From assembly GCA_951406725.2 (NCBI GenBank), contig OX597822.1, positions 52,824,001 to 52,888,000 on the forward strand: 64,000 bases of DNA. Reading direction: 5' to 3'. Position numbers and translations under genes: made by a program. The notes under the pieces are model-generated. The model did not search any database and was not told where the DNA came from. It saw only the letters and a program-made list of their open reading frames with translations. Source of the DNA: Octopus vulgaris. Taxonomy: Eukaryota. Below, piece by piece: positions 2,230-62,701 of this stretch (its first letter is position 1; each line of letters starts with the position of its first letter).

Positions 2230-3870
2230 TGATTGATAAAATGACCTATGAAAACATTAAGGATGCAAGTACTGAGGTTAGCAGGTGTAGTCGTAGTTGC
2301 AGAATTGTCAGAGAAAAAGAAAGGACAAAAGAAGGATCAGCGGATACCATGATGGAAAAGGTGGATAGTAATGAAACTTAGAGGCCTTAGTGGATATAAG
2401 TAAATTCGTCAAGTGGAAACAGGGTAAATTAGAAAGGAAAGAAAGGAAAGGTAGAATAGGGGAAATGTATCACGTGAGGAAGAATGGAACTGGAATACCA
2501 ATCGGAGAACTAAAACAGAGAGTAGAGGTAAGAGCTGTCAAAATCAGAAAATGCGAAGAATGATACAACCAATCGCCATTTTCAAACAATAGAGAAGCGC
2601 CCATTTGATTGGCATAAAAAATATGTAAAATTATGTCAAAAGTAAAATTCTGAAATTTTTATGAAAATAAACTATTTAGGGATAAATGTGGGAATAATAA
2701 TAAAGGGGAGAACTAGATCTGGTTCGTAGCTTCTGGGTGAAAGAGTTTATAACCTGCAATGAAACCATAGAGATACAACTAAAAAAAATAAGGGTCAACA
2801 AATGGAGGACTATGTCCAACACTGAAAGACTAACTAAAATGTAATGCTGCTTTGGTTCACTGACCAATGTATGTGTTTACCAATTTTGTGGTTACCCCAA
2901 AACAGGGAGAATTGCAGAAGAGGTACACCAACATTTATATGAGAAACACCTAATGCCTGATAAACAGAAACGCTGTCAAAAAAAGAGTAATGGAACGAAA
3001 GAATAACTAATGATTGACAAAATGGTCGTTAAAAAAATTGACAAATTTATAAATCGCGGAGGTCGATCTTAGAAAAACTTATGACTCAGTCCCAAATGGT
3101 TAGATACCTGTTAGAAAATACAGTGTTGTTGGAGAGTAGAATTTTTAAGTGGGGAGGGTACTTGTCGAATGGGAATGGTGTTACAAAATTTTCCGATTAA
3201 CAGAAAAACCGATTAAAAAAGTATTTCAAGGACATCCTCTCTCCTATCTTGTTTATCGATCCCTTTGTCAATTATATTACACAAAGCTAAGGAAGGATAC
3301 TCATTGGTAGAAAAGAACAAGAGAAAAGTAGGCCATTTATCTATGAACAATTTAAGGCTTCATGATAAACTCAATGTGACCGAATTCCTTAGCGTGAAAT
3401 GTAGAAATATTTAGAATCGATGTTGGGATGACTTGTAAAAACGGTGCTATGGTCGGGATGAAGAGAAGAAAACTCATAAAAAGTACCGGAATCGATATCT
3501 GCTTAATGACGAAAATATTAAATCATTAAACGCAGAAGAAGCAATCTGGGAATCCCGGATTTGAAAATCCAACTGACTGCATTGATTACTTATAATCAAT
3601 GCGAGGGCAAACCCCAATACGGTATGGAACAGAAATTATTGAGTAGAGAAAGGATACGCTGAAGGATATCGATCGGAAAACAAGAGGGTAGTTTCCAATG
3701 AACAGAATGATTTATCTACAATATACATATTATAGACACAGGAAAAGATCAGAAGGAGGAAGAGGGTTAATGAGTGTTAAAGCGATAGTATAACTAGAGA
3801 TGACAAGCTTAGGGGTCTATCAAGAATAAATAGGAGTAACACTCCTGTAAGGAGTTAATACGCGAAGGAC
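2230..3870 (+). mobile_element. Highly degenerate R4/Dong-like LINE reverse-transcriptase fragment
   Basis: Remnants of QK.C.K, LMIDK, DL.K.YDSVP, IFQG..LS.LF and SEGGRGLMS in shifting frames. Confidence 0.6.
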
Positions 3871-21369: not shown

Positions 21370-22215
21370 CTTAGAAAGGAGCCACTGTTGAAACATTAAG
21401 AAGGCCGGCGTCATCAATGAACAAAGAAAAAAAAAGAAAAAGCAGGGAAGGGAAAAAATCTGCGGTCAGTTTGCAAAAGAGGTCAACGCGAAGTCAGATA
21501 CAGAAAACCAGTGGCTATGGATGAGGAGGAGTGAACTGCAGATAGAGACAGAAGCACTTACATGCAAAACAGACAATACTACCGAGACCGGCAAATGCAG
21601 AATGTGTAGTGAGAAGCGTGGAACGGTATCGCACATCGTCAGCGAATGCCCGAAATTGGTTCAATACAATAACGAAAGACGAATGACAATATGACAAGAA
21701 TGTTTCATTGAAAGCTCTGTGGAAATCACGGCCTACAAAGAGCAAAGACGTAGTATGACCAAACCACATAAGGATTCAACGAGAACGAAGATTGTGAAAT
21801 TCTGTGGGATGCAATGATTCAGTGCGATCACCTGAGCAGACATCGAAAGCCGGACGTTGTTGTGGTGAATAAAAAGGAAAGAACTTGCACGATAATCGAC
21901 ATAGCTTGCCCCGGTGATAAGATGAAAGAAAAAGAAGAAAAACTGAACGACTACGACGATTTGAAGTGGGAAATACGAAGGTTGTGGTCAATGAAGTGAG
22001 TAGACGTGATACCAATAGTGATTGGTGCACTTGGAAGTATCAGTGCTCAACTACCAGCATGGCTGAAAAAAGATTGGTGCAAATGTGAAGGTAGAACACC
22101 TACAAAAATCAAAATTGACTGGAACAGCAAGAATTCTTCTCAGGTATCTTGAAGTATGTCCAGTAAACAAGTGTCACCTTCGTCTGCTGACTGTGGACAG
22201 CTGACACTTTCCATC
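21370..22215 (+). mobile_element. R4/Dong-like LINE 3' fragment
   Basis: WLWMRRSELQIETEAL, KCRMCSEK..TVSHIVSECPKL zinc knuckle, RKPDVVVVNKKERTCTIIDIACPGD endonuclease motif; ends in (TAA)/(TGA)n. Confidence 0.85.
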
Positions 22216-56241: not shown

Positions 56242-56658
56242 TTATTTCTTTATTGCCCACAGGGGTTTAAACATAGAGGGGACAAACAAGGACAGACAAA
56301 GGGATTAAGTCGATTATATCGACTCCAGTGCGTGACTGGTACTTATTTAATCGATCCCGAAAGGATGAAAGGCAAAGTCGACCTCGGCGGAATTTGAACT
56401 CAGAACGTAGCGGCAGACGAAATACCTATTTCTTTACTACCCACAAGGGGCTAAACATAGAGGGGACAAACAAGAACAGACAAACGGATTAAGTCGATTA
56501 CATCGACCCCAGTGCGTAACTGGTACTTAATTTATCGACCCCGAAAGGATGAAAGGTAAAGTCGACCTCGGCGGAATTTGAACTCAGAACGTAACGGCAG
56601 ACGAAATACTGCTACGCATTTCGCCCGGCGTGCTAACGGTTCTACCGGCTCGCCGCCC
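56242..56658 (-). mobile_element. SINE family A dimer
   Basis: Two units joined at GACGAAATACC|TATTTCTTTACT. Confidence 0.9.
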
Positions 56659-57373
56659 TAATTGGCGTTGTCAATTAATCCTTTTCTCATGAAATAATCC
56701 TTTCTGCAATAGACACAAAGACTGAATTTTCGGGGAGGGGGTAAGCCGATTACATCAACCCCAGTACTCAACTGGTACTTATTTTATCGAACCTGAAAGG
56801 ATGAAAGGCAAAGTCGACCACAATTGTTTGATTGGTGCAGGGCTTCAGCTATGATGTAGACTGCCGAGTGAATTGATATCTGTGAATGTAGGTAAAATGG
56901 AAATGGAAGAAAAAGACACATAATGGAGTGGAAAATAATGTATGGGGGGAGATTGTCGGAGATATGAGCAACGGTTTGGATAAGCAACGAACATTGGTGT
57001 AAATGCTAAAATCAAATATAAAGGTTTGAAGTGTTAATCTGGACAGCACAACACAAATCACTTAGACTAAATTAACCGAAATGACATATCAGTAAGAACA
57101 TCAATAATGCGCGCATTACCAACTGGAAACTGGAAACCCTAAGAAAGTAGCTAACTTATGGAGATATATTCTCAAAACAAACAAAAATTATCAGAAATAT
57201 AAATAGAACACTTAAAAGGAAAAAATACTTCAGGAAAACGTAGATTGTAACCGCAGAGCAATGCCAAATAATATCCTAAGCACTGAGACTGTAAAACACG
57301 AGGACAAACGTAAGATACAGAAACTACCGACCAATAACTCGCCTTCCACTGGCATGGAAGTTGCTAACAGGTG

Positions 57374-59718
57374 TTATCACACACATGTGAGTGAGAACAC
57401 TTAGAGATATTTTTGGTATCTAACATATGTCAGATACTGCGAGCGCTGCTTCTGATTGGTCAATCCATGGTGATGACCCGAGGTCACGGTGACGGCACTA
57501 CTTTTGTCATTCATAAGTTACAACTAAACTTTCACGAGCAGGTAGAATGTAGCCATGTAATTAAACAAACATACTATCTTTTTTATACCAGATATCACTT
57601 AAAGTCATATACACATAAAATATAAACATTTCTGGTCGTAATTCAATGTTTTGTTGCCAAAAAAATCACAACATATATCGTCTGCTCGTCGATACTCTTG
57701 CAGTGCAGGTAGATCTATCAACAAGATGGCTACTGTTGTCGATATCAAGGTGAATGATTTTGTTAAGATTGATGGTAATGATGGGGGAAGAGTGTTATCC
57801 GTTGTTCAACCTCTTGGAACATACAGAATGTTCAATGTGAAGATCAATACTGGCCAAGTTCGACATGTTGCTGGATACAGGTTAACAAAGGTACCTGAAA
57901 CAGTGTCATCGACGAGTGGATTGTCATCGAACCCTACATTTAACATCCCTGATGAGGTGTACAATGATCTTCTTCGTGACGATTTCTTTGATGGTAGCCA
58001 TAATGAACTTGAATTTCAACCGAGGTATGATCATTCTGGAATAGATAAATTCGTTCAAGGTAATCAAAATAAAAACACTCTTCGGAAAACAAGTTATGAT
58101 GTTAAACGATTGTTTGCTTTCATGGCGACAAATGGCGACACGCGTCCAATTGAATCTATCGACAAAAGCGAACTTTGTGACATTCTGTGTACTTTCTTTA
58201 TCTCGTTACGAAAACCGGACGGTAGCAACTATGAACCTTTATCTTTGAGGGGAATGTTATTCAGTATTGAAAGATATCTGAAGTCAAAACACTACTCGAC
58301 GTCACTATTCTCGTCACTATTCGTGAAACTACATGACGTACTAAAAACAAAGCAAAAGCTGTTGAAAAGTGAAGGAATGGGAAACCTACCTCGACGCGCG
58401 GAATCTCTCTCCGACGACGATATCAACAAGCTATGGGAATGTGACCAGCTCGGTCCGAACACACCTGAATCCATCCTCAACACGCTATGGTAGAACAACA
58501 CCGTTCACTTTGGTATCCGGAGTGTCAAACCTCACAACGACATGCGATGGGGCGACGTTTCTTTGCATGTTGACAATGAAGGCAAGGAATTCCTTCAGTT
58601 TAGGGAGCGACAGTCCAAAACTTGTCAAGGTGATAATCTCGACCATGCACGTAACATCTACCCAAAAGCATGGGCGACGAATGATGAGCGTTGTCCAGTT
58701 AACCTGTACAAGCGTTTTGCTGATCTGAGACCATCAGATTATTCATCGCCGGATTCACCATTTTATTTGGCCACCAACTGCAAAGATGCCTCCCATTCTC
58801 ATCCCTGGTTTAAACGTCAACCGGTCGGTGTCAACAAACTAGGTACAATTATGAAAAGGATGGCTAAATCAGCTGGTTTGGACAATCGAAGATTCGCGAA
58901 CCATTCAGCACGCAAATACCTTGTGCAGAAGCTCGCTGACCAGAACATTCCTCCAACTGAAATCATGCAGATATCTGGACATCGTAATGTGCAAAGCATC
59001 AATAGTTACAGCAATATTTCCATGGATCGTCATCGTGCCATCAGTAACATCCTTAGTAGCAACAACGACCAGCCTGGTTCGCTTGTACTTCCGTCACACA
59101 CAGCAGCAGCGAGTGCAAGTGAACTCCCCTCCACCGCCAACGTTACGTCGAGTCAATCAATGTGAACTTCTTTGGTTCAGATGCAAAGCGACCTCGTCTC
59201 ACAGATAATGAGGACTGTTAAGTTTTACTGGACTATTGTGCTCTACTCTGACTGACATTGCTACTCGAAAACAGGTTTGAGTATTATTAAAGTTATTGAA
59301 GATTCAATCTGTCTTATGTATTTCTTGAACGTGAACTTGAATGTTAACAAAATGTTAAACAGTCATCAGTTATCAGTCATTTCACCTGAAAACTTAGCGC
59401 TATAAAGTCGGACTATCTTCCTGCGGCATGACATCTTTTACAGTTACACATTGTGACGTTACGGACGTGAAATCAAGCTGTATTCATGCGCGCTTCAACA
59501 CGATGTGAAGAATTTAATTATTAGATTAATAAAATATGGTCGTTTATTCGTGTGTAATAAATAAAATACCAAACTCATTCCCTATGGATACCGTATTTAT
59601 TACAACTCATGGCTTGTAAACGTATCTAACTCGCTTTCGCTCGTTAGACACGTTTACAAGCCACTCGTTGTAATAAATACGGTATCCATAGGGAACTCGT
59701 TTGGTATTCTCTATTTAT
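57374..59718 (+). mobile_element. Crypton-type tyrosine-recombinase DNA transposon
   Basis: TTAT direct repeat at both ends (57374-57377, 59715-59718); removing the element restores the host RT frame; single YR ORF; long 3' hairpin. Confidence 0.88.
57726..59165 (+). pseudogene. Crypton tyrosine recombinase (DUF3504-like), ~479 aa with one in-frame TAG at 58491-58493
   Basis: ORFs 57651..58493 and 58542..59165 are in the same frame; RKPDGSNYEP.SL, HFGIR (R), RQSKT (K), RCPV, NHSAR (HxxR), SGHRN (H), SINSY (Y). Confidence 0.88.
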
Positions 59719-59719
59719 T
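59556..59719. repeat. ~78-bp-arm terminal hairpin of the Crypton
   Basis: aataaataaaataccaaac...tctaactcg ctttcg ctcgttaga...gtttggtattctctatttatt. Confidence 0.9.
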
Positions 59720-61260
59720 GCAAACGATATTTATAATCCTGAGGAGGGTGACCTGCTACCAAAAGATCAGAAAGGATGAAGAAAATGTTCCAAAGAGACG
59801 AACAACCTATTATATATAGATCAGCAAATCCTCCGAAATGTAAAAATCAAGAAGAAAATATTAGCAACGGCGTGGACTGATTACCAAAAGGCATATGAGT
59901 GTGTGCTGCACTCATGGATCCTAGAATTCCTCAGTATATTTGGGATAGCTGAGAATGTTGTCCAGCTCTAACAAAATATTATGCCAAAATGGAGACCTAT
60001 ACTAACATCTGGTCAAGATAAGTTATGTGTAATCAGCATAAGTAGGGGACTATTCCAAGGTGATACACTCTCACTGCTGCTATTTGTGGTTGCTCTTACC
60101 CCTCTTACACTGATCTTGGGAGAGGTTAAATCATACTACAAATTTAGCATGATACAAATGGATGACCTATAATTATTTGCTAAAAGTGAGAAAGCTTTAG
60201 ATTCACTGGTTCAGACTGTTAGAGTTGTGAGTAATGAAATTGTCATGGAGTTTGGGATAGATAAATGTACGTTGCTAGCGATAAAGAGAGGTAGAAAATG
60301 CAAGTCAGAAAGGATTAAACTCCCTAATGAGTGATTGATTCGAGTAATGAATGAGGATGACTGTTACAATTACCAAGGTGTATTGGAGGCAGGTAGAATC
60401 TTCTGTCAGGAAATGAAAGAGAGGGTGAGAAACGAATATTTCAGGAGAGTAAAATGGGTGCTAAGCTCAAAACTGAATGGAGGAAAAAGAATCTCTCTAG
60501 TGAACACATAGGCAGTCTGTCTAATGCGATATCCTGCTGCTTTCTTGAACTAGTCTAAGGAAGAGCTAAGAGAAAAAGATTGTAAAACCAGGAAAACGAT
60601 GTCCATGTACAGATTACTACATCCTAGAGACAGTGTCGATAGATTATACTTACCATAGAAGGAGGTGGGAGGAGACTGATACTAATAGAAAACTGTGTAG
60701 AGATGGCAAAACGCGGTATCGAAGCAACTCAGAAAGATTGATTTTACCTGCCTGAGGAGAGGAGAAAGAAGCCGTGGAGACCACAACGAAATACAAAAAA
60801 AGAAGCAAATAGGAGCGAGAAAGAAATATCTGGAGAAAATAACTACACGGTTACCATCTCAGACAAACGCTGGATGTCGCAGCAGAGGAGTCTTGGTTAT
60901 GGCTGAAGAATGGAGACCTTACGAAAGAAACGGAAGAACTCATAATAACCGCACAAAGCCTGGCAAAAATAGACAAATCCGCGAAAAATGCGAAGTGTAG
61001 GGCTTGTAATAAGAAAGGGAAATTCATTTGGCACAGAAAAAATATGGACGCAGACACGACTGTGTGACCAAGATATTGCAACGGGTCATATTATGGCAAA
61101 GAGGATTTAAAGTAGAAAGAAAATACTACCAACGTCAACCGAAAAGTGAAATAGAAAACGACCAGTGTAAGGTTTTATATGATTTTAATGATCAGACTGA
61201 CTGCGAAATTCAATCAAGGCGATCAGATATTATGATTCTTACAAGGGGAAAAAGAGTGCA

Positions 61261-61634
61261 CCATCTAGAAAAACGCTGCCGCCGTGGTGATCTCATTCTC
61301 GCTCACAACATCATAAGCGGAAAGTGTAACCTCTCGAAAGAGCTGTTCTTCACTCCTGCTCCAGAGCGTCGGCTGCGGGGTCATTCCGAAAAGCTCTACC
61401 TGCGACGATTTCATCTCAATCGAAGGAGAGGAGCTTTCTCCGTCCGGGTTGCGGATCCGTGGAACAAGCTGCCAGACGAGATGGTGAAGATGCCGACGAC
61501 CGCTTTGTTCAAAGTCTCCCTTGACCTCAAGTGGCCTGAACTCTTTACATGAACACCACCCTGTACTTAACTCCATGTCCCCCTACATGGCCTTGCTATT
61601 TGCTTTTGAGCCAAATTAACTAACTAACTAACTA
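61261..61634 (+). mobile_element. CR1-type LINE 3' end
   Basis: LEKRCRRGDLI, RLRGHSEKL, FSVRVADPWNKLP, FKVSLD; (TAAC)n tail. Confidence 0.85.
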
Positions 61635-61958: not shown

Positions 61959-61984
61959 TAATAATAATAATAATAAAGCCTCCC

Positions 61985-62701
61985 CACCAGAAATTACCAA
62001 AAACATGTAATGAAAAGAAATATAACAAGTAACTGCAGAATATGTGGAGATGGACAAGAAACAATAAATCATATTATCTCTGGCTGCCCAGTCCTGGCTA
62101 AGAAGGAATATATTCACAGACATGACAGAGTTGGAACCTACATACACTGGAAGCTATGTCAACATTATGGAATAACAACAGAAAAAAGATGGTATAGGCA
62201 CACACCAGAAAAGGTCACAGAAAACGAGAAAGCAACCATACTCTGGGATATGCCGATACACACAGATAGAGAAATTAAAGCCAACAGACCGGATATAGTT
62301 GTCAGAGATCATGAAGAAAAAAATGCTTTCTAATTGATGTATCAATACCGGCAGATGACAACGTTTCTCTAAAAGAAATGGAGAAACTCTCAAAATACAA
62401 AGACCTAGAAATAGAGGTAACCAGAATGTGGAATCTAAAAACAGAAACAATTCCTATCATAGTAGGTGCATTGGGCATGATAAAAAAATATTCAGACAAA
62501 TACATAACAAAAACACCAGGACTTACAAACACATATAACATACAGAAAATTGCACTACTAGGCACTTCACTCATCCTACGCAGAACACTTTCCATACAAT
62601 AACCATCAGAGCATCACAACAAATCACAGCACATACCTAAGGCACAAAGAGCTGCGCATGGTAGTGAAGTGAAAGCACGCTATAAAAATAAAACTACTGA
62701 A
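61985..62701 (+). mobile_element. Young 5'-truncated Dong/R4 LINE inside (TAA)n
   Basis: CRICGDGQETINHIISGC (CCHC), RHDRV, RPDIVV...IDVSIP, KLSKYKDLEIE, PIIVGALG; one frameshift; (TAA)n on both sides. Confidence 0.9.

Follow-up and report, generated by a model that had tools for sequence, protein, structure and literature searches.

The window analyzed here, a 64,000-nt stretch of Octopus vulgaris DNA, contains a LINE whose reverse transcriptase (RT) frame is interrupted by an element with a single tyrosine recombinase (YR) gene, and the locus raises the question of what this element is, where it begins and ends, and how elements of this kind move and multiply. The ends of animal Cryptons have previously been reported as featureless, and the cut-and-circle model of their movement leaves gains in copy number unexplained. 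Kojima and Jurka (2011) reported no terminal repeats in animal Cryptons and entered every CryptonA as "n.d." in supplement 1 (PMC3212892).

TTAT stands on both sides of the insertion (Table 1) in the contexts given by an earlier, sequence-only reading of the locus, and excising the element plus one TTAT regenerates the RT peptide quoted there. The register was cross-checked against homologs: P0118 reads LLTGIVADDIYAHL where the window reads LLTGVIANDIY-NP, and the offset from N(YRPI) to Q(KG), which is 36 in 82 of the 84 homologs with both motifs (150 examined), is 35 in the window, the one absent residue sitting after DIY and away from the insertion junction. The boundaries had been called base-exact, but the join slides across all four TTAT bases, and fixing it takes other copies, which place TTAT inside the element at the left and outside it at the right. 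In assembled contigs, loose ends before 57374 are supported by 11 and 10 contigs with agreement of 0.46-0.48 and unrelated flanks, and on the right side other copies part from the window after 59716 (at least 2 and at least 3 contigs). Other copies thus do not end differently, as the earlier reading had allowed they might, but share the left end at 57374. The element is some 80-95 bp short of an undamaged copy, and no second copy lies within the 64-kb window.

Table 1. Coordinates of the features at the octopus locus (positions within the window)
Feature	Position	Strand	Basis and remarks
CryptonA element, TTAT-CACAC ... CTCTAT	57374..59714	+	2,341 bp; locus ends and copy comparison
Left-terminal TTAT, likely element-derived	57374..57377	+	Constant among copies and families
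Host target 4-mer, in LINE RT frame	59715..59718	+	TTAT here, a perfect match; sister-family consensus D-T-M-T
Host LINE RT, 5′ piece	57322..57373	+	Frame restoration and homolog register
Host LINE RT and downstream region, 3′ piece	59715..61255	+	Many stops; homolog alignment
Intronless tyrosine recombinase ORF	57726..59221	+	DUF3504, Phage_integrase and QRICH1 matches; broken by stop and frameshifting deletion
Predicted N-terminal Tudor/KOW-like beta-barrel, residues 3-57	57732..57896	+	P0071 model
Premature TAG	58491..58493	+	TGG in other copies
Catalytic residues R265, K298, H393, R396, H419, Y428	58518..59009	+	Alignment; Cre/Xer fold match
Scar of 70-nt deletion at CAATC(A) microhomology	59154..59159	+	Frameshift; comparison with full copies
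Long subterminal hairpin, ~170 nt	59548..59714	-	66-nt arms 59565-59630 and 59643-59708; folding and shuffles
Inner-arm extension, inverted copy of circle (right-end/left-end) junction	59549..59563	-	Arm compared with joined ends
Hairpin cap GCGAAAGC	59633..59640	-	Bottom-strand fold

The host LINE is old and has many stops. A Pfam scan of its short pieces gave no match, a phmmer search then yielded homologs, and its RT matches RVT_1 at E 1.2e-9. The homologs finish with a zinc knuckle and an RLE-like nuclease, and the LINE is presumably R4/Dong- or HERO-like. Paralogous LINE contigs align to 57377 and pick up again past 59810 (at 57377-59879 in 3 of 4 runs, plus related joints), in contig records that do not give the letters between 57377 and 59879, and neither an exact empty-allele joint nor a circle-type joint is among the joints listed for the 4 runs of assembled contigs, which lose rare forms, so that the lack of a circle carries no weight. 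More fragments of related RLE-type LINEs lie at 61977-62602, flanked by (TAA)n tracts, and at 21458-22156, 1054-1891, and 2716-3820. The 3′ end of another repeat at 61265-61610 (frame ...ADPWNKLP...) apparently breaks the host LINE downstream of the Crypton, and 56270-56830 holds three neighboring copies of a short interspersed repeat with a common GAAAGGATGAAAGG...GTCGACC, which we take to be a likely octopus SINE.

The sole ORF of the element, one long frame in two halves parted by a stop, encodes a DUF3504-type YR. A Pfam scan matched DUF3504 (PF12012) at E 1.6e-25 and Phage_integrase (PF00589) at E 2.2e-8, as well as QRICH1, and found no RT/RNase H, GCR1_C, or other C-terminal domain in the element. 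The six catalytic residues, all of which the sequence-only reading had recognized, are invariant or almost so across 12 aligned relatives, and no intron is evident in the ORF, in agreement with the same reading. When the stop-free copy P0071 was modeled, its fold came closest, among solved structures, to XerA and Cre (Z 15.1), ahead of an integron integrase (Z 12.0); QRICH1 is its top Foldseek match, and the C-terminus of the recombinase is disordered in the prediction. The DUF3504 match and the Cre/Xer fold uphold the earlier identification as a Crypton, and on identity alone the element is almost certainly a CryptonA.

In a tree built without Repbase references, the only companions of the octopus recombinase are DUF3504 proteins of molluscs and hemichordates; the CryptonA hosts listed in PMC3212892 include Saccoglossus. 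The nearest relatives of the octopus family are 61-64% identical, followed by Littorina at 59%, and the 64 hits include no other cephalopod, a pattern that horizontal transfer or incomplete annotation could explain. A 608-aa predicted protein of Octopus vulgaris, P0048 (PF16087, PF00292, PF13565), contains a recombinase piece that is 89% identical over 21% of the query, and probably represents nested elements or a gene-model fusion. The predicted N-terminal barrel of P0071 has five strands with a pLDDT of 68-90 by block, and resembles the Tudor domain of ERCC6-L2 (Z 8.3, rmsd 1.8 Å over 55 residues, a borderline Z obtained with the whole P0071 model). It is visible in about 15 of 24 aligned relatives, and a structure-atlas search for the barrel returned no score above 0.80. 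Such a barrel may steer the recombinase to chromatin or replication sites.

The copy in the window is a dead, ordinary insertion. It had been described as near-intact, with one premature stop and no frameshift. The stop is there, at a codon that is TGG in 4 of 4 runs, but the 70-nt deletion drops 22 codons and puts the last 21, including KRPR, out of frame, and further lesions are a short in-frame indel (58312-58318) and the loss of 12 nt at 57527. The deleted stretch is present in the full copies P0068 and P0071, the window tail lies in another frame, and the gap is visible in contig record 21. Among 40 of 146 rows, the differences found in 3 or more runs comprise 7 missense changes, 1 stop, and 3 silent changes, with N37K left out of the missense count because full-length copies have the window's residue; the coding changes of this copy appear to be neutral decay. 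The window copy is ~1% from the dominant ORF sequence, and long contigs differ from it at ~1% of bases (7/899, 10/1079, and 13/1061), against ~12% for LINE paralogs. The insertion that had been called recent is therefore young relative to the LINE, but it is not fresh, since each of 4 runs, drawn from four studies and four organism codes and perhaps including the source sample of the window, contains both locus-specific junctions.

The ORF halves correspond to P0074 and P0070, both in a cluster of 11 members that also includes named proteins of Octopus vulgaris and O. sinensis and is spread over Octopus contigs of six distinct sizes. Intact copies, which the earlier reading had thought possible, do exist in the form of stop-free proteins of 497, 518, and 522 aa with 94-96% identity. 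Summed contig depth, which is not a copy number, is 36-169 in the middle of the ORF and 4-44 for locus-unique junction contigs; in the left-end and right-end bins it reaches 5,000-87,000 and 4,700-31,000, respectively, or hundreds of times the value for the ORF middle. This contrast shows that short derivatives are far more abundant than ORF-bearing copies. Loose ends behind 57529 run on into sequence resembling that from 59505 onward, implying a unit of ~370 bp, and other joints omit 57530-59303 and 57747-59316. Loose ends and a backward joint also occur at 57442-57503, a segment with a CCAAT-like box, and suggest that some short derivatives hold tandem duplications of it. The octopus left-end pattern had 0 matches in viral_contigs, and 8 relatives from viral_contigs were set aside as weak, short matches (E 6e-5 to 8e-4).

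The role of TTAT was judged from a sister family, of which a pattern scan found 11 copies of one 511-bp non-autonomous type on low-GC contigs that we infer to be host-animal DNA in a MAG. The right end of this family, GTAATATCCTCTAT, is identical to that of the YR-bearing loci L007, L012, and L074. All 7 copies with both ends start with TTAT, all 11 end with CTCTAT, and the 4-mers to the right are GTCT, GTAT, GTAC, TTCC, TACT, TTAT, GTAA, ATCT, ATAT, ATAC, and ATCT. Position +1 is thus G in 4, A in 4, and T in 3, position +2 is T in 10, and position +3 is A or C in all 11; TTAT itself is found at 1 of the 11 junctions, the other 10 having 1-3 mismatches to it. In six autonomous relatives the right 4-mers are TTAC, TTAC, TTAT, ATAC, TTTA, and TTAT. 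Before the left TTAT stands a T in 5 of 7 sister copies; the window has a G there.

Because the left TTAT is constant and the right 4-mer varies, the element would be delimited as in Table 1, the second TTAT being a host target that matches in full by chance. TTAT is likely the element's own left end and not a duplicated target, as judged from these alignments, and its earlier description as target and crossover core is not supported as a rule, since it is constant at the left end only and the right 4-mer is loosely matched. Measured against the terminal repeats of Cryptons, the perfect TTAT pair here and the exact pair at 1 of 11 sister junctions fit a near-identical target, not a fixed repeat, and the variable +1 position is a poor fit to a top-strand homology check. 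No repeat pair links the two ends of the element as terminal inverted repeats, the long inverted repeat being local to the 3′ end. Since the inner arm matches the right host flank at 7/9, a guide-like choice of target was considered; it was rejected, as the 11 sister flanks have no such match beyond the 4-mer.

The 3′ end carries a structure that the earlier reading had missed. The segment 59548-59727 folds as one hairpin (-66.9 kcal/mol, z -19, 0 of 200 shuffles), the bottom strand of which has three tandem GA/GA mismatches (G.A pairs) and a 2-nt bulge near the terminus, and its wobble positions 59609 and 59649 are restored to Watson-Crick pairs in other copies. Beyond the pairing with the right end, the inner arm extends as TATTTAT-TACACAC, compared with TATTTAT-CACACAC for the junction of a circle. 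This junction copy matches at 10/14. Treated as a blind search, the match lacks significance (170 of 300 shuffles), and it counts only because the left end is fixed independently (6 of 7 bases after TTAT). A left-end hairpin at 57371-57400 was rejected as a feature, being weak (z -1.7, 9 of 200 shuffles) and absent from the left ends of relatives. Eulor5/6 repeats are self-complementary according to database notes. They have been classed as Crypton (PMC5753468), and a hairpin alone may already be on record through them. No description of the hairpin and junction-copy design was found in the literature searched, of which Repbase/Dfam entries and subscription reviews were not part, and the end architecture, as read from the alignments, is new relative to the animal Cryptons described in that literature.

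Some related loci repeat this design. Among 80 metagenome loci with 31-50% identity, 26 have a strong downstream self-match and 23 were analyzed, L026, L059, and L060 being left outside the set for self-matches far from the ORF. Tandem mismatches on the bottom strand of the 23 hairpins comprise GA/GA 36 times and TC/TC 6 times; by locus, 14 have GA/GA only, 3 have TC/TC, and 6 have neither. Stem sequence varies among families, while the mismatches and GNA loops are retained, with GNA triloops in most relatives. The inner arm foretold the left end at 13-14 of 14 positions in 6 of the 11 loci with enough upstream DNA (0-1 of 300 shuffles), and in the sister family the junction copy matches at 17-18 of 18 in 7 copies. 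An inverted-ORF CryptonA group, with the hairpin terminus 5′ of the gene, comprises L015, L016, L024-L026, L035, L037, L043, and L078; in these loci it is the sense strand of the upstream hairpin that has GA/GA, and the far end was foretold at 12-13 of 14 in 5 of 8 testable held-out loci (10 examined; 0-1 of 200 shuffles). GA/GA therefore tracks the element terminus and not the strand of the ORF, which argues against a role in the mRNA.

Junction-copy hits are spread over 7 separate tree branches. The left-end prediction was wrong in L005, L006, L012, L040, L016, L024, and L025, L007 and L028 were not parsable, and the left ends of L004, L043, L048, L062, and L071 stood outside the prediction counts. 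Many of the relative loci derive from few samples, and by hand count some 20 of the 49 related loci that extend 600 nt or more downstream lack a hairpin at both ends. The hairpins of L004 and L071 may belong to a different element that lies in reverse orientation. In L074, L075, and L015 the hairpin center is flipped relative to sister copies (flip/flop), a hint that the arms recombine or that template switching occurs between them. A short GA/GA-GNA cap without the long stem was seen in L094-L155 (haloarchaea, Patescibacteria, and others) and in L089-L092, often many per genome in Halorubrum, and may mark an unrelated ssDNA-type repeat in prokaryotic loci; the cap is thus not specific to this enzyme.

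The pattern of ends, targets, and hairpins makes it somewhat probable that the octopus CryptonA family has a circular intermediate and that the tyrosine recombinase acts on the folded bottom strand of this circle. The ends of the element would join into a circle, and the bottom strand would fold so that the end junction pairs with the internal copy, giving a duplex-like attachment site from one strand. The recombinase would then swap one strand only with a host site that reads (T)D-T-M-T, at a point just left of TTAT, as seen on the top strand, which in the host site falls between (T) and D. Such an exchange at the left edge of the 4-mer would place the element's TTAT on the left and the target 4-mer on the right, matching the observation. 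Replication would resolve the intermediate with the donor kept and the copy number raised, which would explain the gain in copies, and short derivatives with both ends retained would be mobilized in trans. Counting against this mechanism are the 10/14 junction copy of the window, the G at the left of its crossover, the better fit of the recombinase to Cre/Xer than to an integron integrase, the related loci that lack a hairpin or in which the prediction was wrong, the small number of samples behind many loci, and the prokaryotic occurrence of the short cap.

CryptonA elements are the ancestors of the human ZMYM/QRICH1/KCTD1 domains. A more tentative proposal, for which the chances stand slightly short of even, is that animal CryptonA elements in general are eukaryotic integron-like transposons, which would be read as a folded strand that arises only once the ends are joined and paired with the internal copy, exchange one strand at almost any (T)D-T-M-T site, and leave replication to finish the process. 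Integron attC sites are recognized as a folded bottom strand with extrahelical bases and resolved by replication (PMC4792948), and the copy number of an active CryptonF rose despite excision (PMC9977147). With defined ends, a target rule, and a folded-strand design, the mechanism lends itself to a direct test with a stop-free Octopus recombinase. If it holds, single-strand tyrosine recombination, so far the province of integrons and phage CTX, would also operate in animal genomes and would account for large families of hairpin-ended short repeats.

A less probable but serious alternative is a classical double-stranded Crypton, in which the element is excised as a duplex circle and both strands are exchanged at a short core; the inverted repeat would then act as an accessory site, or as a cruciform helping synapsis or directionality, and the junction copy as a second binding site. 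Exchange of both strands by YRs depends on homology, and targets that depart from TTAT by 1-3 positions in 10 of 11 cases fit such an exchange poorly; nor does a duplex site need 60+ bp of family-specific self-complementarity with mismatch pairing on one strand only. A conserved binding site would, however, likewise covary with the ends, and Cre and XerA are the closest solved folds. The Goodwin model as summarized in PMC3212892, the CryptonF donor CACCG with its near-identical target CAYCG and clean excisions (PMC9977147), and the circles of Starships (bioRxiv 10.64898/2026.09.21.753150) also favor the double-stranded model.

It is improbable that the hairpin serves replication or RNA biology instead, whether as a priming or origin signal on an excised strand, as a hairpin-telomere precursor, or as an antisense RNA structure. 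The same short cap does occur in prokaryotic and viral contigs without a Crypton-type stem, the flipped hairpin centers of L074, L075, and L015 are what template switching or hairpin replication predicts, and GAAA is also an RNA tetraloop. Such roles nevertheless leave the arm's copy of the far end across the junction unexplained; the strand with GA/GA changes from antisense and downstream in the octopus element to sense and upstream where the ORF is inverted, and most relatives have GNA triloops, which are stable loops of the DNA type. A reading of the ORF as a single-copy host gene, domesticated like ZMYM/QRICH1/KIAA1958 and flanked by repeats through coincidence, has next to no probability, despite homologs named "finger MYM-type 2-like" and "KIAA1958 homolog" and the QRICH1 Foldseek match, because such a DUF3504 gene would be single-copy and syntenic with its catalytic residues lost, whereas this element breaks a LINE in register, keeps all those residues while its window copy decays neutrally, and is multi-copy with unrelated flanks, so that copy number and flanks refute an alternative that had been named at the outset.

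Compared with known systems, the octopus element is a CryptonA member on every feature that could be tested. The CryptonA elements of animals described in PMC3212892, CryptonA-1_LG and CryptonA-1_OL with its non-autonomous N1/N2, likewise have a single DUF3504-type YR ORF within ~2-2.3 kb, and likewise consist of few autonomous and many short non-autonomous copies; the octopus element differs from that account in its defined ends, target rule, 3′ hairpin, junction copy, and predicted Tudor/KOW barrel, and the words "hairpin" and "palindrom" are absent from the main text of that paper. CryptonF-1_cRei of Chlamydomonas shares a short donor motif at one terminus, a near-identical target, and a rise in copy number, but belongs to the CryptonF YR group and uses a 5-bp CAYCG target, and the available text of PMC9977147 mentions no hairpin. 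Glomhoppers, fungal CryptonA elements, share the DUF3504 YR with intact catalytic residues and intronless copies, but their boundaries and repeats were not definable and the main text of PMC13465315 lacks "hairpin" and "palindrom".

DIRS elements, as described in PMC13465315, likewise combine a YR with an internal segment complementary to the joined ends, but they belong to the retrotransposons, encode RT/RNase H, and are bounded by long inverted terminal repeats. The octopus element has neither, the nearby RT being that of the interrupted host LINE, and its internal segment is the arm of a hairpin. In its predicted working, the closest analog is the integron attC site, together with CTXphi attP, in which a palindrome folded from one strand serves the YR as substrate, some bases stay unpaired, microhomology is minimal, and replication resolves the product (PMC4792948). 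A strand-selective fold with unpaired bases, as in integrons, appears as a sequence design that is present and conserved in the octopus element and its relatives. The element differs from integron cassettes in lacking an attI platform, IntI, and a cassette array, being a single self-contained DUF3504 element, and its site, compared with attC, would be complete only once its own ends join. By this analogy, the octopus element would work like, but is not, an integron cassette.
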